Assembly (NCBI GenBank): GCA_963849325.1
Contig: CAWKHF010000002.1
Location: forward strand, 128,001-192,000
Source: an uncultured Planctomycetota bacterium
GTDB lineage: Bacteria; Planctomycetota; Planctomycetia; Gemmatales; Gemmataceae
Length of the DNA: 64,000 bases
Reading direction: 5' to 3'
Shown here: positions 5,816-64,000 of the stretch, piece by piece
Layout of the letters: each line of letters opens with the position of its first letter
Numbering within the stretch: position 1 is the stretch's first letter
Made by a program: the position numbers and the translations under genes
Notes under the pieces: generated by a model
What the model was told of the DNA's origin: nothing
The model's input: only the letters and a program-made list of their open reading frames with translations
The model's database searches: none

Positions 5816-5929
5816 ATGAAGGTTCGAGCGAGTGTGAAGCGCATCTGTGAGAACTGCAAGCTGGTGCGGCGGCACGGCAAGCTGCTGGTGATTTGCAGCA
5901 ATCCCCGTCACAAGCAGCGCCAGGGCTGA
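5816..5929 (+). CDS. rpmJ: 50S ribosomal protein L36 (Zn-type)
   Basis: [37 protein letters not shown]; too short for the ORF track. Confidence 0.97.
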
Positions 5930-5944
5930 GCGAGGAGATCCACC

Positions 5945-6331
5945 ATGCCGCGTATCCTGGGTGTTGACCTGCCCAACGACAAGCCGACGCACATCTCGCT
6001 GCGTTACATCTACGGCGTGGGTCCGACGCTGGCCCTGCGCCTGTGCGAGCAGGCGCGCGTCGATCCGCTGCGTCCGGCCAAGAACCTGAGCGATGAAGAC
6101 ATCGCGCGCCTGGCGACCATCTTGGACCGCGAATACACTGTCGAAGGCCCGCTGCGCCGTCAGATTCAGCAAAACATCGCCCGCTTGAAGGACATTCAGT
6201 GCTACCGCGGTTTCCGGCACCGTCGCAGTCTGCCGGTTCGCGGTCAGCGGACGCGCACCAACGCCCGCACCCGCAAGGGGCCGCGCAAGACCGTGGCCGG
6301 CAAGAAGGGCGTCAAGGAAATGCGCGGGTAA
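5945..6331 (+). CDS. rpsM: 30S ribosomal protein S13
   Basis: [17 protein letters not shown]. Confidence 0.98.
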
Positions 6332-55611: not shown

Positions 55612-56322
55612 ATGAGAGCCTTCTCCACTCCTCACTCGGTTCGCGCGACCAAGAAACCGCTTGAGCCACTCGTCAACGGCGAGCGCATGAAGCAGCCAGA
55701 GTTCCACCGCCGTTACGAGGCGTGTCCCGAAGAGGAGAAATGGGAGCTGATTGGAGGTATCGTCTACATGGCCTCGCCGTTAAGACTGGGCCACTCGCGC
55801 CACGATGGCAAAGTTGGTCTCGTCCTGGAACTGTATGAGCTTGCGACGCCCGGGACAGAGGCACTGCACAATGCGACGATGATCCTCGGCGAGGAAAGCG
55901 AACCGCAGCCGGACCTCGGCCTCCGTATCCTTCCGGAATACGGCGGCCAATCGCGGACGACTCCCAATGACTATCTACAAGGTGCTCCCGAACTCCTCGT
56001 CGAAGTGGCTCATAGCCGCCGTGCCCTTGCCATGCACGGCAAACGCGAGGATTACCAACGCACCGGCGTCCTCGAATACCTCGTCGTTTGCTGGCAGGAA
56101 CAGGAAGTTCACTGGTTCCATTTCCCGACGGGCAAGTCGATTGCGCCCAACCGCCAAGGCATCTCTCGTTCGCGTGTCTTTCCGGGATTGTGGCTCGATG
56201 TCGCGGCGCTGCTTCGCCTGGATTCCGCGCGTCTGATGGAAGTGCTTCAGAAAGGTCTCGCCAGCCGCGAGCATGGCGCGTTCGTCAAGCATCTCCAGAC
56301 CGCCCATCGCAAGCATTCCTGA
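55612..56322 (+). CDS. Uma2 family endonuclease (tandem paralog)
   Basis: ELIGGIVYM, SEPQPD, PELLVEVAHS. Confidence 0.9.
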   Translation: MRAFSTPHSVRATKKPLEPLVNGERMKQPEFHRRYEACPEEEKWELIGGIVYMASPLRLGHSRHDGKVGLVLELYELATPGTEALHNATMILGEESEPQPDLGLRILPEYGGQSRTTPNDYLQGAPELLVEVAHSRRALAMHGKREDYQRTGVLEYLVVCWQEQEVHWFHFPTGKSIAPNRQGISRSRVFPGLWLDVAALLRLDSARLMEVLQKGLASREHGAFVKHLQTAHRKHS

Positions 56323-57277: not shown

Positions 57278-57321
57278 GGTGGGCGTTGGTGCTCGCCAGG
57301 TTCCCATGCTTGAGGAATGAC

Positions 57322-59890
57322 ATGAAACACCGCTCCTTTGTCGCCGCTCTGGTCCTCGTCGGCGTCGCCGGTCTGGCCCTGCATTACCCGCTCGCCGCGA
57401 TCCGCGATCCGCAGCCGGCCTGGGCCGACGAGGCGCGACCGATCGCGGCGAGCGGAAAGCGGGTAGCGGATCGCGGACAGCGGATGCTGCCGGGCGTCGA
57501 AGCGAGCGGCATGGTCCGCTTGCCCAACCAGTGGGCGCTGCGGCCGGCCGGCCGGCAGGTGCCGCTGGGCGATTTCCCGGTCAACCTCGCCCTGCATCCC
57601 ACGGGACGGTGGCTCGCCGCCCTGCACGCCGGTTACGGCACTCACGAGGTCATCCTCGTCTCGACCCGTGGCAACCCGCCGAAAATCGTCTGCCGCGTGC
57701 CGATCGATCAGGCGTTCTACGGACTCTGTTTCGCCCCGGACGGCAAAACCCTGTTTGCCAGCGGCGGCGAGTTGGAGGTCATCCACGCCTGGACCTTCGA
57801 GGACGGCCTGCTGGCCCGGCATCGCACCCTTCGGACGGCCGAACGGACCAAGACGTTCGTGCCCAGCGGCCTGGCCACGGACGCCGACGGCCGGACGCTG
57901 TTCGCCGCCGGCCTGTGGGGCCATGCCGTCGCCCGGATACCGCTGGACGCTCCCGAGCAGCGCCGCCTGGTGAAGCTGGACAAGGACAGTTATCCCTACG
58001 CCTGCCTTCCCGAGCCGGGCGGCAAGCGTCTGTTCGTCAGCCTGTGGGGCAAGGCCGGCATCGCCGTCCTCGACCTGGAGAGCGATAAGGTCGCCGCCAT
58101 CTGGGCGACGGAGAGTCATCCCACCGAGATGGCCCTGGCGCCCGACGGCAAGACCCTGTACGTCTCCTGCTCCAACTCGACGCGCGTCTGCGTCCTCGAC
58201 GCGGCCCACGACGGCAAGGCGCTGCAAACCATCGCCTGCTCTCTGCATCCCAACGCGCCGTCGGGCAACACGCCGAGCAGCCTGAGTCTGTCGCCGGACG
58301 GCCAACTCCTGTTCGTGGCCAACGCCGACGCCAACAACGTCGCGGTCTTTCAGGTCGCCCAGCGCGGCCAGGCCCAGGCGCTGGGCTTCATCCCGGTTGG
58401 CTGGTATCCGACCTCGGTGCGCTTCGATGCCCAGACGAAGAAGATCTACGTCGCCAACGGCAAAGGTCTGACGTCGCGGGCCAATCCCCAGGGACCCCAG
58501 CCCGGCCGGATGCGCTATACTTCCGTGGAGCAATACATCGCCGCCCTCTTCCGTGGCACGCTCGCCGTCATCGACATGCCGACGCCGGCACAGATGGCCG
58601 TCTACAGCAAGCAGGCGTATGCGTGCAGCCCGCTACGGGCCGACGTCGGCGCCGACCGGCGAGCGACCGGAAGGCAATCCCATCCCAGCCAAGATCGGCG
58701 AGGCCAGTCCCATCAAGCACTGCATCTACATCATCAAGGAGAACCGCACCTACGACCAGGTTTTCGGCGACATGAAAGAGGGCAATGGCGATCCTCATTT
58801 GTGCTTATTCGGCGAAAAAATCACGCCCAACCACCATAAACTGGCCCGCGAGTTTGTTCTGCTGGACAACTTCTACGTCGAGGGTGAGGTTTCGGCCGAC
58901 GGCCACCAGTGGAGCATGGGCGCCTACGCCACGGATTTCGTCGAGAAGGTCTGGCCCTTGTCCTACCGCGGCCGGCCGATCGCCAGTTCGATCAAAAACC
59001 TCAGCCTTTATCCCTCCGAGGGGCACTTCGATTCGATCGCTCGTCCGGCCGGCGGCTACCTGTGGGACCGCGCCGCCGAGGCCGGCGTCAGTTACCGCAG
59101 TTACGGCGAATGGGTCGAGGAGGGCAGGAAGCCCGGCGATCCCGCCAAGGCACGAGTCAAGGCGCTGGAGGGCCACATCGATCCGATGTTCCGCGGCTGG
59201 GACCTCAACTATCTCGACCAGAAGCGGGCCGACCGCTTCATCGAGGAACTGCAACGCTTCGAGCGCGACGGCGGCTTCCCCAGCCTGATCATCCTGCGTT
59301 TGCCAAACGACCACACGTCGGGGACGAAGGTGGGCGCCCCGACGCCGCGCGCCCAGGTGGCCGACAACGACCTGGCGCTGGGCCGGGTCGTCGAAGCCGT
59401 TAGTAACAGCAAGTTCTGGAAGGAGACGGCCATTTTCGTCGTAGAGGACGACGCCCAGAACGGACCCGATCACGTGGACGCCCACCGCAGCGTGGCCCTG
59501 GTCGTCAGTCCCTATACGAAGCGCAACTATGTCGATTCGACGATGTATTCCACCAGCAGCATGTTGCGAACGATGGAACTGATCCTGGGACTGAAGCCGA
59601 TGAGTCAGTTCGACGCGGCGGCTCGGCCGATGTACCACTCGTTCCAGGCCAAGCCGGACACGACCGCCTATCGGCACGTTGTTCCCGAGGTGGACTTGCA
59701 GGAGAAGAACCTGGCGTCCGCCTGGGGGGCGAAGCGGTCGGAGAAGTTCAATTTGGCGAAGGAGGACGCCGCCGACGACCTGCTGCTCAACGAGGTCATC
59801 TGGCGTTCGGTTAAGGGACCGCATTCGCCGATGCCGGCTCCCGTACGCGCCGCCTTCGTTCTGCAACACCCGCGAGAGGACGATGATTAA
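57322..59890 (+). CDS. Bifunctional YncE beta-propeller / phosphoesterase (alkaline phosphatase-like) protein (frameshift near 58650)
   Basis: LSPDG repeats, IPVGWYP; IIKENRTYDQVFGD, VSADGHQW, EDDAQNGPDHVDAHR. Confidence 0.88.
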
Positions 59891-59993: not shown

Positions 59994-60009
59994 TGGTAGG
60001 GGAACGGAG

Positions 60010-60083
<74 letters not shown>

Positions 60084-60266: not shown

Positions 60267-60467
60267 TCATTTGTCCTGGCGCTCGGCCCTTTCGGGCAAG
60301 ACCTTGGCCTCCTTCCGGTGTGCCCAGGCTCGACCAATGACGAGCGCTTGCCGGAGGCTGGTCACTGGGATCTTCGACTTGCTGCCGACAGTGAGTCGGC
60401 CCTCTCGGAACTCGTGCAACGCTCTCCGCACCTCGTTCGAGACTTCCGAAGTGTAGGTCCGAATCAT
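60267..60467 (-). CDS. DUF6496-like small basic protein
   Basis: VRRALHEFREGRLTVG...VTSLRQALVIG; GGAGAG RBS. Confidence 0.7.
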   Translation of the reverse strand: MIRTYTSEVSNEVRRALHEFREGRLTVGSKSKIPVTSLRQALVIGRAWAHRKEAKVLPERAERQDK

Positions 60468-60547
60468 GATCGCTCTCCTACCCTGTTCCGGTGGGCGATC
60501 GTGTGCGGCCGGGCCACTGCCCGGTCGAATAGTTACATTACAGATAG

Positions 60548-60564
60548 AGCAAAGAGCGTGCCGG
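60548..60564 (-). promoter_or_regulatory. Putative sigma-54 (-24/-12) promoter
   Basis: Minus strand CCGGCACGCTCTTTGCT (GG-N10-GC). Confidence 0.6.
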
Positions 60565-60585
60565 CTTTGCCACGAAATTGCCCTC

Positions 60586-60675
60586 TGTTACGGAATGACG
60601 CCGGGCGGCTTTGTTACGTTTTGCCCTCTTGTTACGGAATGACGCCGGACGGAGCCGGTCTGTTACGGAATTACA
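60586..60675. promoter_or_regulatory. Four TGTTACG(GAAT) boxes, putative enhancer (UAS) sites
   Basis: TGTTACGGAATGACG x2, TGTTACGTTTTGCC, TGTTACGGAATTACA. Confidence 0.5.
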
Positions 60676-60745
60676 GTAGTGTCTTAAGGTTGCGTTGCAA
60701 TGGCGCGGCTACTACTGGTTTTGCAACGCAATCGCCACTTGCAAT

Positions 60746-61286
60746 TCAGCACGTGGAGACCTGAACGACGCGACCGAAACGGAACCATATGTAGAGGTCG
60801 GGATCGTGTTTTCCGGTTTGAGAATCGCGTCTTGTCGTGATATACCTAGAGGTCTTCGTTCGGATTAGACGCTATCACATTTAGGCCAGCTGGTGCCTCG
60901 CGGGCTATTTCAGCCGGGTTGCCGAGCGTCTGCCGTACTTCCTTCATGGTAAATCCGGCAATCCGTCTTTCCAATTCCTCCACGCTAGGCAAAGTGTCTC
61001 TACTCCGCGAGCGAGTTGCCGTCAGCCACCAACCGATACCGCCAAGACCCATGCAGACCAGTAACAATGTGGCTACACCGCCGACAAGTAGGCGGGGATG
61101 CCGGAACGTCTTCCCTAACGACGTTGCTTGGCTTGTTTCTGTTGCAGGTGGATCGACCCGCACAGCCGTAGGCGGCTTCGGTACAGTTACTTGCTGTTTG
61201 CAGTTACCGCACATCACGGCTTGACCGACGCGCGACGGATCACCAGACAATCGCGTGCCACATTTCGGACAGACGAAGTAGATCAT
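60746..61286 (-). pseudogene. Zinc-ribbon TM protein interrupted by an in-frame TAG (60846-60848) and a frameshift near 60826
   Basis: CPKC...CGNC, TM helix, GFTMKEVRQTLGNP; coding-like sequence continues past TAG as VYHDKTR/DSQTGKHDPDLYIWFRFGRVVQVSTC*. Confidence 0.55.
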
Positions 61287-61555
61287 GGATTGTTACTCCT
61301 GACGGGACGAGGCAGATGGAGACCCACGGAGTCATAAGGTATAGCTACATAGAATGTCTAAAATATCTCCTTAGTAGAGCAAGTTCTCCGGCATTGTCTA
61401 TACTCCTCACAGATTCAGGGCTGGACAGAAAGTTTATTCGATAGACGGCGAAATGCAACGGATCAACTGCGGCTACTGTGCCGTTGATCCGTGCTCGGTC
61501 TTTGAGCGGCATTTTCATCTGACCTGAAAAAATTGATTCTTTTGCGAAATCACAC

Positions 61556-61584
61556 TTGACGAAAACAGAATTGCTGCTCACAAT
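61556..61584 (+). promoter_or_regulatory. Putative sigma-70 promoter for the tRNA cassette
   Basis: TTGACG-N17-CACAAT with AT-rich upstream sequence. Confidence 0.55.
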
Positions 61585-61585
61585 C

Positions 61586-61625
61586 AAAAAGAAGAAGGCC
61601 GGGAGGTTGCACCCTCCCGGCCTCC
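61586..61625 (-). terminator. Hairpin followed by a U-rich tract on the minus strand
   Basis: AGGCCGGGAGG...CCTCCCGGCCT preceded on + by AAAAAGAAGA. Confidence 0.5.
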
Positions 61626-61638
61626 GGGGATACGAAGC

Positions 61639-61710
61639 GCCGGGTTCGTCTATTGGTAGGACAGCGGGCTTTAGCCCCGCTTAAGAGGGGTTCGATTCCC
61701 CCACCCGGCA
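61639..61710 (+). tRNA. tRNA with TTA anticodon (putative ochre suppressor)
   Basis: Acceptor GCCGGGT/ACCCGGC; D-arm GTCT-ATTGGTA-GGAC; anticodon arm GCGGG-CTTTAGC-CCCGC; T-arm AGGGG-TTCGATT-CCCCC; A73. Confidence 0.8.
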
Positions 61711-61766
61711 TTTCGTTCCTTAATTTTACCAAACGTGGCAACCGCGTCAACCAGAAAGAGGCTCCC

Positions 61767-62243
61767 ATGTCTCCGCGCATCGAAGCCACCGACAAGGATG
61801 GCATTCGGTGGGTGGTTACTGGCAATAGTCATACGGACTTGGAACTTGGCATCACGGCTTTACGAGCCAGTTTTGCCCACAAAGAGGAAGTCGTACCGTC
61901 GCGCCGACGCGGACGACCGCCCAAGAATGGTGTTGCCAAAAGCAACGAAGTTGAGAAGACACGATTGGAAGCAGCCTTGTCCATCCTGCGAGCGATTCAG
62001 AAGGGTGGCGATGCCGGTGCAGATTCATCTTCGCTTCTCTCCGCAACCGGGATCGACAAGCCGGAAGCCAAGGCGCTCGGGCCGATGATGGGGATGCTCG
62101 CCAGAGTCTTACGAGATAATCGTCTGACGCAAAACAAAATCTACATCACAACTGGTTTCAGTCCTAACAAGCGATGGGTTCCGCAAGCGGAAATGAATGA
62201 TGCGATCAAGAAACTGGAAGAAACCATGAAGAATCAACTCTAA
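61767..62243 (+). CDS. Hypothetical AT-hook-containing putative DNA-binding protein
   Basis: AGAGG RBS, 158 aa, RRRGRPPK, helical C-terminal domain. Confidence 0.7.
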   Translation: MSPRIEATDKDGIRWVVTGNSHTDLELGITALRASFAHKEEVVPSRRRGRPPKNGVAKSNEVEKTRLEAALSILRAIQKGGDAGADSSSLLSATGIDKPEAKALGPMMGMLARVLRDNRLTQNKIYITTGFSPNKRWVPQAEMNDAIKKLEETMKNQL

Positions 62244-62307
62244 ATAGCGACTTGTAAACGCTGGCGATGGCCTAGAATCCGTGCGCCACCAGTCCGGGCT
62301 GTATCGT

Positions 62308-62401
62308 GGAGAGCGGCCCGCGTCTTGGCCGGCGCACTGGCTTTACAAACCAGCGAAGGGACCGGGTTTGCACCCGGCAGGTTCAATTCCCCCGCTCTCC
62401 G
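62308..62401 (+). tRNA. 9/3 allo-tRNA-like gene (anticodon TAC, long V-arm, G73)
   Basis: 9-bp acceptor GGAGAGCGG/CCGCTCTCC; D-stem GCGTC/GGCGC; anticodon arm CTGG(C)-TTTACAA-(A)CCAG; V-arm CCGGGT-TTGC-ACCCGG; T-arm AGG-TTCAATT-CCC. Confidence 0.6.
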
Positions 62402-62586
62402 TCTTTCCGCAATTGATCTTCAGCAGCTTGCAGCAGGATCGGCCGCGCCCACGCGGCCATGTCGCCCCCTGCGCTCAAAGCTGCCTCCATGACGCGGGCC
62501 TTCTGCGCTGGCGTTACCGGGATGCGCAGGTCTACGTCTTTCGCCTCCGCCTTTGGTTTCATCGGTCGCCCGCGTCGTTTCTTCAT
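62383..62586 (-). CDS. Small ribbon-helix-helix-like regulator divergent from the transposase
   Basis: KKRRGRP...LRIPVTPAQKARVMEAA...MAAWARPILLQAA. Confidence 0.7.
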   Translation of the reverse strand: MKKRRGRPMKPKAEAKDVDLRIPVTPAQKARVMEAALSAGGDMAAWARPILLQAAEDQLRKDGERGN

Positions 62587-62699
62587 GGAAATAAGTGTAG
62601 CAAAAAAAATCTGGATTCAAGCCTCCGGGTTTTTATTGTTGTTTTATTTATACTACAATAAATCAGAGGAGACAGCACTCGCGTTTAAGGGAAATCCCA

Positions 62700-63685
62700 A
62701 TGAACGCACGCGAAGAACGCGGCCTTGTTATCGCGGCCCTGTGCAAGCTGAACAAGACGCCGGACGGGTGGCTTGTCCCGTCGCAGTCGAACGAGACGAT
62801 CTACCGCGTGAACGTGGAAAAGCAGACCTGCACTTGCCCGGATCACCAAGAGGGTGGGTTCAAGTGCAAGCACCTGTACGCCGTCGAATTCACCGCCAAG
62901 CGGGAAGTCGGCACGGACGGCACCGTGACCGAGACGAAGACGCTGACCTTCACGGAGAAGGTGACGTACAAGCAGGACTGGCCCGCGTACAACCTCGCCA
63001 GAGCATCGAGAAGGACCGCCTGCAAGAACTTCTCTTCGACCTGTGCCGTGGCATCGAAGAACCCGAGCGCAGCGGCAGCGGTCGCAAGCCGCATTCGATG
63101 AAGGACATCGATCTTCGCGTCGGTGTTCAAGGTCTACAGCACGATCAGCAGCCGGCGCTTCTCTTCCGACCTGCGCGAAGCCCACGAACGCGGCTACCTG
63201 TCCAAGCCGATTCCCGGCCTGAAAGTGCCGCAGTTCTTTGAGAACGCGGCCCTCACGCCGATCCTCAAGAGCCTGATCGTCCAGAGCAGCTTGCCGCTCC
63301 GCTCGGTCGAAACGAAGTTCGCCATCGACAGCAGCGGCTTTTCGACCAGCAAGTTCGAGCGCTGGTTCGATCACAAGTACGGCGTCACGCGGCGGCGATG
63401 CACCTGGATCAAGGTCCATATCGCGTGCGGCGTCAAAACGAACGTGGTGACGGCGGTTCGCATTCTGGACAAGGACGCGGCACGACTCCCCGCAGTTCAT
63501 CCCGCTCGTCAAGGAAACGGCCAAGAACTTCACCATCGGCGAAGTGTCGGCGGACAAGGCATACGCCAGCGTGGAGAACTTTGAGACCGTCGCCGAGTGC
63601 GGCGGGACCGGCTTTATGGCCTTCAAGTCGAACACGACCGGCGCGGCCGGCGGACTGTTCCAGAAGATGTTCCACTATTTCCAGT
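62700..63685 (+). mobile_element. SWIM-zinc-finger DDE (IS5-like) transposase, frameshifted and truncated by an IS insertion
   Basis: CTCPD...CKH SWIM; DWPAYN; FAIDSSG; WIKVH; VSADKAY; breaks after FQKMFHYFQ, before the catalytic Glu. Confidence 0.85.
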
Positions 63686-64000
63686 CTGTACTTTCCGCGA
63701 TTTCCTTATAGTTCGCCATAAGCGATCACTCTTGGGCGTAAAGTTGCTGGCGAGGTAACGAAGCATGGCTGCGACGAGCGGGTGGACACAAGCCGGCTCC
63801 TCGAACACGATGAAGGGTAGTCAACAACCTTCGTCCTGCCAAGGAGCCGGCCATGCCATTGTCGCAACTGCCCGCCCTGCTGTCCGCCTGTTTCCCCGAC
63901 ATCACCGCCGCCCTCGACCGCCGCTCCGCCCCCCGCCTGCTCCTGCTCTTCGTCGGCGCCCTCTTCGCCAAGGGCCGACGCACCGTCACCTCCTGGTTCC
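63686..64000 (+). mobile_element. IS701-family-like element: left end and transposase 5' part (ATG 63853)
   Basis: Junction CTGTACTTTCCG; AAGGAG RBS; MPLSQLPALLSACF...ALDRRSAPRL...GALFAKGRRTVTSWF; runs off the window. Confidence 0.7.

Follow-up and report, generated by a model that had tools for sequence, protein, structure and literature searches.

Allo-tRNAs were reported by Mukai et al. (2017; PMC5389517), in the available text of that paper, from Clostridia, Proteobacteria, Acidobacteria and soil metagenomes; sub-threshold matches to the tRNA-Sec model were the original route to them, their genes were located near toxin-antitoxin systems and a transposon-related open reading frame (ORF), and induced allo-tRNAs with leucine anticodons arrested and killed Escherichia coli. 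Short metagenomic reads are the main source of the natural (9/3) allo-tRNAs, of which ten species are given in the available text of a later article (PMC7590224). Here we analyze a locus of this kind at positions 61,556 to 63,685 of a 64,000-nucleotide stretch of DNA (the window, i.e. positions 128,001 to 192,000 of contig CAWKHF010000002.1, assembly GCA_963849325.1) from an uncultured planctomycete of the family Gemmataceae. In this locus, the gene for an allo-tRNA-type RNA (hereafter, the allo-type RNA) is encoded tail-to-tail with the gene for a small ribbon-helix-helix (RHH) protein, downstream of a tRNA gene with the anticodon UUA, denoted tRNA(UUA), and of a gene for a protein with an AT hook.

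The locus belongs to the known kind of allo-tRNA loci (Mukai et al. 2017). The features that it shares with the (9/3) allo-tRNAs, as far as these are laid out in the available text, are a 12-bp acceptor branch split 9/3, a long variable arm, the discriminator G73, less clearly a long D stem with a small loop, a sub-threshold match to tRNA-Sec, a non-serine or stop anticodon, toxin-antitoxin and transposon-related neighbours, and a co-occurring irregular suppressor-type tRNA. It differs from them in its planctomycete host, in an anticodon loop that contains UAC or UUA in a 9-nt context, in the ORF that lies between the two RNA genes, whereas Mukai et al. described tRNA polycistrons, and in the conserved convergent RHH gene, which goes unmentioned in the text of that paper, although its Figure 4A may show one. 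A full-text literature search found no paper that links allo-tRNAs with ribbon-helix-helix proteins or with Planctomycetes. New in this locus are the planctomycete host, an RHH gene that is a conserved partner and recurrently has a transposase beside it, and the association of these with tRNA(UUA) and an AT-hook regulator. The locus and its relatives provide a long genomic context, in a further phylum, for an RNA class known so far for its toxicity and decoding in E. coli.

In the tRNA and RNA-family searches that a preliminary description of this DNA had proposed, ARAGORN and Rfam both recovered tRNA(UUA), whereas the allo-type RNA was missed by ARAGORN and matched only the tRNA-Sec model of Rfam. 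This match scores 28.6 bits, where the gathering score is 47, and has E = 0.011 for a search of 4.5 kb. The acceptor stem of this RNA consists of nine Watson-Crick pairs out of nine, the D stem has 5 bp and a U.C pair closing a UGGC loop, a conserved AGGGA precedes a variable arm formed by a 6-bp hairpin with a 4-nt loop, the T loop reads UUCAAUU, the discriminator is G73 at position 62401, and CCA is not encoded. When the 12-bp acceptor branch is split 9/3, 11 pairs form compared to 10 for a 7/5 split, a small margin; the same comparison gives 11 vs. 9 in two close relatives (L020 and L067 of the genome scan described below) and 12 vs. 11 in a third RNA (L116). The 9/3 branch, the variable arm with G73 and the sub-threshold tRNA-Sec match thus place the RNA among the allo-tRNAs, and the evidence supports the conclusion that both RNA genes are real and that the second of them is a 9/3 allo-tRNA-type RNA, as the preliminary description had it from the sequence alone.

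The anticodon of the allo-type RNA is ambiguous between UAC and UUA. The sequence between the halves of the four-pair anticodon stem, CUUUACAAA, can be read as a loop of 9 nt or of 7 nt. If the register of L020, L067 and L086 is applied, the window RNA has the 7-nt loop UUUACAA, closed by a C.A pair, and the anticodon is UAC (valine codon GUA); the corresponding anticodon is UAU in L020 and L067 and UUA in L086. In the 5′-side register, the first seven letters of the loop are identical to the 7-nt loop of L116, CUUUACA, with the anticodon UUA. The codon GTA accounts for 5.9 per 1000 codons in the window and is a minority codon.

To identify relatives, genome contigs were scanned with a pattern consisting of GGAGRG at the 5′ end, a residue other than T at position 8, a T loop, and a 3′-terminal CYCTCC. 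The allo-type RNA is the only match of this pattern in the window, and none of 100 shuffled sequences is matched. The genome scan yielded at least 120 loci, and all figures on the locus set refer to the 120 matches listed, most of which are ordinary tRNA-Ser or tRNA-Sec genes. With these matches, the allo-type family comprises at least five RNAs, namely, those of the window, L020, L067, L086 and L116, which have the 9/3 geometry, G73 and a long variable arm in common. The RNAs of L020 and L067, both from metagenome-assembled genomes (MAGs) of Pirellulales, have the same architecture as the window RNA; the first 21 nt are identical in L020 and differ by one change in L067. Among the four Watson-Crick pairs of the anticodon stem, three changed on both sides and are still paired (CUGG/CCAG vs. 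GCAG/CUGC, in segments defined by hand), one D-stem pair, C-G in the window, is replaced by U-A in L067, and the variable-arm hairpin retains its pairing in the window, L020 and L067 although the sequences are unrelated. The two other RNAs are more distant members: that of L116, from an Acidobacteriota MAG, has a clean 9/3 form, a GGG/CCC T stem and the loop CUUUACA, and that of L086, from a Planctomycetaceae MAG (CAVWNP010000006.1, positions 5897-5989, + strand), is called tRNA-Stop(tta) by ARAGORN. L086 is a second planctomycete with a stop-reading allo-type RNA; its clean 7-nt loop is CUUUAAA (UUA), the RNA scores 41.8 bits on tRNA-Sec, and an IS1-like gene adjoins it.

A covariance model, R1, trained on the five family RNAs gives these members 75-98 bits (98.4 for the window RNA), and the best non-family sequence in the window or in the 120 loci scores 54; because the five members trained the model, only the gap between member and non-member scores is informative. 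On the tRNA-Sec model, the allo-type RNAs of L086, L116, L059 and L097 score 32.8-42.6 bits, below the gathering score, and those of L020 and L067 do not reach E = 0.1 on this Rfam model. Further allo-type tRNAs were noticed among the matches: a 9/3 form with the anticodon UAG in an Actinomycetota MAG (L059, 6683-6774, - strand), and two 8/4 forms with the anticodon GCC and U73 in Acidobacteria MAGs (L095, 3705-3795, + strand; L097, 223-313, - strand); no RHH relative was found near these three. The allo-type RNA had no match in plasmids.

The RHH gene and the allo-type RNA gene converge and overlap by 18-19 nt (the RNA being taken to end at 62400 or at its discriminator, 62401), such that the TGA stop of the protein, which has a basic N-terminal RGRP tail, falls within the T loop of the RNA. 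When the AT-hook family, the RHH protein, a neighbouring zinc-ribbon protein and pieces of the transposase were used as tblastn queries against the 120 loci, only two hits were obtained, both for RHH (L116, E = 4.4 × 10−6; L067, E = 6.3 × 10−6), and each is located at the 3′ end of a related RNA, on the opposite strand. In L067, the RHH stop abuts the RNA end with a gap of 0 nt, and in L116 the two are 11 nt apart, so that the junction ranges from −18 to +11 over the loci. In L086, an ORF of the same size occupies the convergent position, with a gap of 0 and a similar C-terminal motif. Judging from these alignments, the synteny of RHH and RNA, which the preliminary description had noted in the window, is conserved across phyla, significantly so in three loci and by a positional analogue in the fourth.

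The RHH family is represented by 109 clusters at E ≤ 1 × 10−3, nearly all of them metagenomic, several of which are 81-88% identical to the window protein, and some of which are labelled DUF1778 by JGI. Among 42 aligned members, Pfam (E ≤ 0.01) finds NikA-like in 18 and TacA1 in 5; the L116 homologue passes the NikA-like cut-off (30.7 bits vs. 27) and matches RHH_1 with E = 0.006, whereas the window protein alone is sub-threshold. The AlphaFold2 model consists of an extended segment followed by two helices, and the top Foldseek matches are the RHH proteins MazE, Arc, NikA, PutA, FitA, ParD, AtaR and VapB, none of them significant for such a small domain. The L116 homologue, the Pfam matches of the family and the topology of the model together argue that the small protein has the RHH fold. 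An ESM Atlas search returned only unnamed clusters (score 0.86), PHROGs gave nothing for the proteins of the module except one PHROG of unknown function (E = 0.005), and the RHH protein had no match in plasmids. With type II toxin-antitoxin systems that have an RHH antitoxin (TacA/DUF1778, ParD, FitA), the locus shares an antitoxin-sized RHH protein, the weak TacA1 matches and the Foldseek ranking of MazE, FitA, ParD, AtaR and VapB. It differs in that the place of the toxin is held by an RNA gene on the opposite strand; no conserved ORF that could be a protein toxin gene follows RHH in the window, L067, L116 or L086.

A transposase gene adjoins the RHH gene in all four RHH-bearing loci (window, L067, L086 and L116), which bears out the association with transposases originally proposed for the window; however, the window transposase, with a SWIM zinc finger and a DDE domain, is decayed and of a different family from the others. 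Those of L067, L086 and L116 are homologous members of the IS1 family with identities of 37-50% among them (in L086 the gene is spread over three frames, and that of L116 is a fragment), whereas no IS1 match was found in the window, where the SWIM-DDE gene is unrelated to the IS1-type genes. Immediately upstream of the L067 RNA, on the same strand, are an Xre-HTH gene and a weak Gp49/HigB-like gene, and a SoFic defence gene is divergent from the L020 RNA (PADLOC, E = 1.5 × 10−42). These contexts, together with those of the transposases, agree with the remark on toxin-antitoxin and transposon-related neighbours in the available text of Mukai et al. Within the 82-nt spacer between the RNA and the SoFic gene in L020 (1906-1987), there are several copies of AATTGACA, which resemble operators or stacked −35 boxes.

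The anatomy of the locus, the RNA family with its covariation and the synteny with the RHH gene lead us to propose that the conserved unit is the allo-type RNA plus the RHH gene, forming a transposon-associated, toxin-antitoxin-like module, a tentative reading to which we assign a probability of about 0.4. Such a module would consist of two genes, one for a 9/3 allo-tRNA-type RNA and one for a small RHH DNA-binding protein, travelling in IS-rich DNA in the manner of a toxin-antitoxin or addiction-type element. The RNA would be the potentially harmful part, either mis-decoding or clogging the tRNA-handling machinery; it could do so by virtue of its SerRS-recognised features (G73 and the long variable arm) combined with an anticodon that fits either a rare codon rich in A/U or UAA. 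The transcripts of the RNA and of the RHH gene must overlap because the genes are encoded tail-to-tail, and convergent transcription, jointly with the RHH protein, would silence the RNA. Expression, charging and toxicity of the RNA, and its repression, are what we infer on this basis. The module in the window would have gained two upstream parts on the same strand, tRNA(UUA), potentially able to read UAA and apparently under a cis-antisense control of its own through a predicted minus-strand promoter and terminator, and an AT-hook/winged-helix regulator. The RHH partner and the transposase neighbour turn the question of what allo-tRNAs are for into a two-gene hypothesis.

An elaborate version of this proposal would see a family of tRNA toxins with RHH antitoxins, spread by IS1-type and other transposons in Planctomycetota and Acidobacteriota, of which the window carries an upgraded form, where an ochre-suppressor tRNA under cis-antisense RNA control and an AT-hook/winged-helix regulator add up to a switchable sabotage of decoding for addiction or abortive infection. 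The RNA would be a poison that sabotages the decoding of a rare codon or of UAA, and the convergent RHH repressor would be the antidote. As a whole, we consider this version improbable. The role in defence or addiction that the preliminary description had suggested as possible for the cassette is hypothetical. If the RNA is a regulated poison, the locus would represent a toxin-antitoxin type with a tRNA as the toxin, and if both RNAs are active, the cassette would be a natural source of orthogonal suppressor scaffolds. In CreTA, with its RNA toxin, and in Streptomyces tRNA-ProX with ProRSx, where the tRNA is mistranslating, a small RNA that disturbs decoding is the harmful or regulatory part. 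The likeness to these systems is conceptual only, and the present locus differs from them in that it has no Cascade, CRISPR or dedicated synthetase gene.

Several observations weigh against the two-gene module. The family is a small sample, L020 carries the RNA and no RHH gene was found there, and the ORF of L086 matches an RHH model built without L086 with E = 0.34 only (rank 5 among 16,125 ORFs), so that this case counts as a positional analogue only. The RHH fold is typical also of relaxosome accessory proteins and transposition regulators, NikA-like being the commonest Pfam match, and none of the PADLOC families matches the proteins of the module. The RHH gene uses GTA for two of its three valines, i.e. 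the module does not avoid this codon. In a scan of the region, the promoter and terminator counts are at the chance level. As for the RNA itself, only four Watson-Crick pairs form the anticodon stem, flanked by C.A towards the loop and by A.C at the outer end, the T stem is weak (A.C plus 2 bp), and both the minimum-energy fold and RNAalifold pair GGGA with UCCC of the T arm, such that no T arm is formed. The closest relatives carry UAU, and none of the six converted allo-tRNA(UAU) variants examined by Mukai et al. was active in translation in E. coli (PMC5389517). The UAU group is characterized in the available text of that paper by destabilised stems and possible five-stem junctions, and two of the six converted variants were lethal (PMC5389517). 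The membership of the closest relatives in this destabilised, translation-inactive group, together with the ambiguous anticodon and the weak T stem of the window RNA, makes translation activity of the latter doubtful, and the same relationship weakens the case for the missense decoding that had been suggested for it.

The most probable of the alternatives is that the allo-type RNA is a tRNA-shaped RNA with a non-translational, regulatory or structural role, for example, as a cis-antisense partner of the 3′ end of the RHH mRNA or as a decoy for tRNA-binding enzymes, and that RNA and RHH form a switch for neighbouring mobile DNA. We regard this alternative as rather unlikely, its example roles included. 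It gains from the weak T stem with the alternative GGGA:UCCC pairing, which is kept in all five RNAs, from the AGGGA junction motif, which is foreign to canonical tRNAs and conserved in the three closest RNAs, from the C.U mismatch at acceptor pair 7 of the relatives, from the overlapping or abutting ends of the RNA and the RHH gene, and from the statement of Mukai et al. that most allo-tRNA(UAU) species may not serve translation (PMC5389517, available text). However, in the window copy the 9-bp acceptor stem is free of mismatches and the discriminator is G73, features of the T loop and the anticodon loop are kept (U33 and a purine at 37 in the 7-nt register), and the loop differences between loci (UAU, UUA, UAC) resemble anticodon switching. 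The alternative pairing itself is neutral: GGGA before the variable arm is kept in the window, L020 and L067 (GGGC in L116, GGAG in L086), and because its columns and those of UCCC are invariant and thus lack covariation, the pairing is neither supported nor contradicted. It may be added that this purine-rich stretch, which with its preceding A reads AGGGA in the three closest RNAs, AGGG in L116 and AGGAG in L086, has two alternative partners, UCCC of the T arm and a CCC linker after the acceptor stem; in L086 this linker is U-U-C, which would be a covariation if it paired with the purine motif.

The conserved adjacency of RNA and RHH gene could also result from target choice, if the RHH gene belongs to a transposable element, as part of a divergent RHH-transposase pair that prefers insertion at the 3′ ends of allo-type RNA genes. 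In L067 and L086, back-to-back promoter candidates, 16-19 nt apart, lie between the RHH and transposase genes, and the RHH stop exactly abuts the RNA end; the transposases of three loci are homologous IS1-family members; and L020 has the RNA alone, with the similarity between L020 and L067 ending at the borders of the RNA. Conversely, the window RHH gene keeps its position at the RNA beside a transposase of another family (SWIM-DDE), the transposase fragment of L116 is reversed, with another ORF in between, the junction varies from −18 to +11 nt, and neither inverted repeats nor target duplications were found. On balance, we hold this explanation to be unlikely. Somewhat less credence still is given to the possibility that both RNA genes are decaying tRNA relics of mobile elements in an IS graveyard, with no present function: the adjoining transposase is a pseudogene interrupted by another IS, an A.C mismatch tops the T stem in both RNAs, and tRNA(UUA) scores 52.7 bits vs. 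70 for tRNA-Gly, but the allo-type RNA is conserved over two phyla with compensatory changes and RHH synteny, both the AT-hook ORF and the RHH ORF are intact members of conserved families, and the acceptor stem in the window is perfect. The original proposal of a single cassette, moved by the SWIM-DDE transposase and rewriting decoding by stop read-through and missense to switch on interrupted cargo genes, is very improbable, because, although the parts have the order and strand described and the sole TAA-ending gene of the cassette follows tRNA(UUA), with read-through adding 83 codons, the transposase is defunct and of another family than those of the other loci, the cassette is found in none of the four related loci, TAA-interrupted frames are not in excess in the window, and TAA is an ordinary stop (9 of 51 crude ORFs).

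Table 1 Features of the locus and its surroundings, with positions in the window.
Feature	Position	Strand	Basis
tRNA-Gly(gcc)	60009-60081	-	ARAGORN; Rfam
Sigma-70-like promoter candidate upstream of tRNA(UUA): TTGACG, 17-nt spacer, CACAAT	61556-61584	+	9 of 12 positions match
Predicted strong intrinsic terminator: 13-bp stem, 10 G-C pairs, T run; inverted repeat I10	61585-61625	-	Predicted
tRNA with anticodon UUA (reads UAA)	61639-61710	+	ARAGORN tRNA-Stop (tta); Rfam tRNA
Minus-strand promoter candidate: TTGACG, 16-nt spacer, TAAAAT, TG-extended −10	61723-61750	-	10 of 12 positions match
158-aa DNA-binding protein, TAA stop	61767-62243	+	ORF list, Pfam, AlphaFold2
Allo-tRNA-type RNA, 94 nt	62308-62401	+	Sub-threshold Rfam tRNA-Sec match, covariance model R1, homologues
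67-aa RHH protein, TGA stop	62383-62586	-	ORF list, tblastn, Pfam family matches
Weak terminator-like hairpin between RHH start and transposase start: 11 pairs, 3 G-C	62605-62644	+	Predicted
SWIM zinc-finger and DDE transposase pseudogene, C-terminus truncated	62700-63711	+	ORF list, Pfam
Start of IS701-like transposase gene (tentative name), cut by the window end	63853-64000	+	NF049999, 18.6 bits, far below cut-off

In the whole window, ARAGORN called two tRNAs, tRNA-Gly(gcc) and tRNA(UUA), and Rfam confirmed both; on the Rfam tRNA model, tRNA(UUA) scores 52.7 bits (gathering score 29) with full-length coverage of the model, and the neighbouring tRNA-Gly scores 70 bits. The tRNA named in the preliminary description is thus corroborated, and with its canonical 7/5 cloverleaf and anticodon UUA, it has the shape of an ochre suppressor. 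It has A73, CCA is not encoded, and the fold z-score is −2.6; unusual are G37 and one non-standard pair, A49.C65, which tops the T stem in the Rfam alignment. The closest database tRNAs are a phage tRNA-Trp (78.7%) and tRNA-Gln and tRNA-Lys (76%), and no match was found in E. coli genomes. A conserved whole cassette, as initially envisaged, does not emerge from the comparison: according to ARAGORN, a canonical tRNA(UUA) is present in none of the four related RNA loci, and no AT-hook relative was detected in the 120 loci. Phage suppressor tRNAs read UAG or UGA, in phages with their own genes recoded. Like these, tRNA(UUA) is a tRNA with a stop-reading anticodon borne by mobile DNA; it differs in that the codon is UAA, the setting is a small chromosomal island, and nothing is recoded in the window. 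In phages, suppressor tRNAs serve stop-codon recoding (PMC10879173, as described in its available text).

TAA ends 9 of the 51 crudely called ORFs of the window, i.e. it is in ordinary stop use as a minority codon. Long open coding-like frames on both sides of a TAA were found once, and there the TAA separates two adjacent genes; the same flanking-frame test gave two cases for TAG and eight for TGA. Thus, with TAA in normal use and no excess of TAA-interrupted frames, the window seems to hold nothing that awaits ochre suppression, which lends no support to the switching on of interrupted cargo genes. A sigma-70-like promoter candidate does exist at the site originally indicated upstream of tRNA(UUA), but such sites occur at chance frequency (two in the region vs. 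1.3 in shuffled sequences). The minus-strand terminator lies between this candidate and tRNA(UUA). Together with the minus-strand promoter candidate, it may frame a cis-antisense RNA of about 130 nt that would cover the whole of tRNA(UUA); alternatively, these predictions suggest that the terminator could at least stop leftward antisense transcripts from the RHH gene.

The 158-aa ORF, preceded by the purine-rich, Shine-Dalgarno-like AAAGAGG, is present as originally described, and its AT hook matches the Pfam AT_hook model only weakly (E = 0.094), although the RGRPPK motif is kept in the relatives, with G49, R50 and P51 nearly invariant in 37 sequences. The AlphaFold2 model is confident (pLDDT 90.3) and has a small N-terminal beta-beta-alpha unit, the AT hook RGRPPKN and a C-terminal winged helix, from which it follows that the protein binds DNA; it presumably acts as a regulator. 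The best Foldseek matches are winged helices of the MarR/Sso10a type (best E = 0.013, none at E ≤ 0.001). The family is rare, with 37 representatives at E ≤ 1 × 10−3 among 1.84 billion proteins, and all relatives with a source shown are metagenomic (jgi, lgn, ena). Neither tblastn nor hmmsearch detected relatives in the 120 scanned RNA loci, and none of the 12 matches of a pattern scan of genome contigs derived from the AT-hook alignment is a true relative. A 158-aa protein of L059, located upstream of another allo-tRNA, was considered as a relative and ruled out because hmmsearch gave no match. The AT-hook ORF, directly after tRNA(UUA), is the only cassette gene with a TAA stop. If this TAA were read through, 83 more codons would follow in frame and traverse the allo-type RNA gene before a TGA is reached at 62490-62492 (span 62241-62492, + strand); the extension may be due to chance in GC-rich DNA.

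The SWIM-DDE gene is a pseudogene, as indicated by at least three frame changes and an in-frame TGA at 63099; Pfam gives 34.7 bits for SWIM, above the cut-off, and 22.5 bits for DDE_Tnp_1, just under the cut-off of 23, there is a weak NCBIfam IS5 match, and the SWIM part had no match in plasmids. The searches for element ends and target-site duplications proposed in the preliminary description gave no definable ends: no repeat pair enclosing the cassette was found by the repeat search, the right side of which ends at the window end. Within the window, the locus thus presents neither an intact transposase nor enclosing repeats. Searches with the cassette DNA against plasmids and phages returned only weak tRNA-to-tRNA matches. 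A 15-nt inverted match (I6, 93% complementary) between the 3′ end of tRNA-Gly and that of the allo-type RNA was considered as an attachment-site duplication and rejected because of its inverted orientation and because its 12-nt exact core is about what is expected by chance in 4.5 kb.

The lower GC content noted for the region was recovered, with 0.475-0.59 over positions 60400-62800 compared to 0.60-0.70 to the left. The left edge of this low-GC island (60562-60674) carries a 44-nt direct repeat in two tandem copies, which are 75% identical, as well as part of a third copy of the core TGTTACGGAAT. A 12-nt inverted repeat, TTGCGTTGCAA / TTGCAACGCAA, comes next at about 60690-60740; the repeats of 60562-60740 are iteron- or operator-like. 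Within the island, positions 60846-61286 (- strand) encode a protein of 146 aa that combines a zinc ribbon at the N-terminus with a predicted membrane segment; its Pfam matches are all weak, and the 120 loci contain no relative. Further to the left, at 57286-59890 (+ strand), two long ORFs of 517 aa and 445 aa in different frames overlap by about 290 nt and may represent one frameshifted gene or an over-extended start. A few kilobases to the left of the island, positions 55612-56322 (+ strand) encode a putative restriction endonuclease of the Uma2 family (Pfam, E = 1.4 × 10−22).

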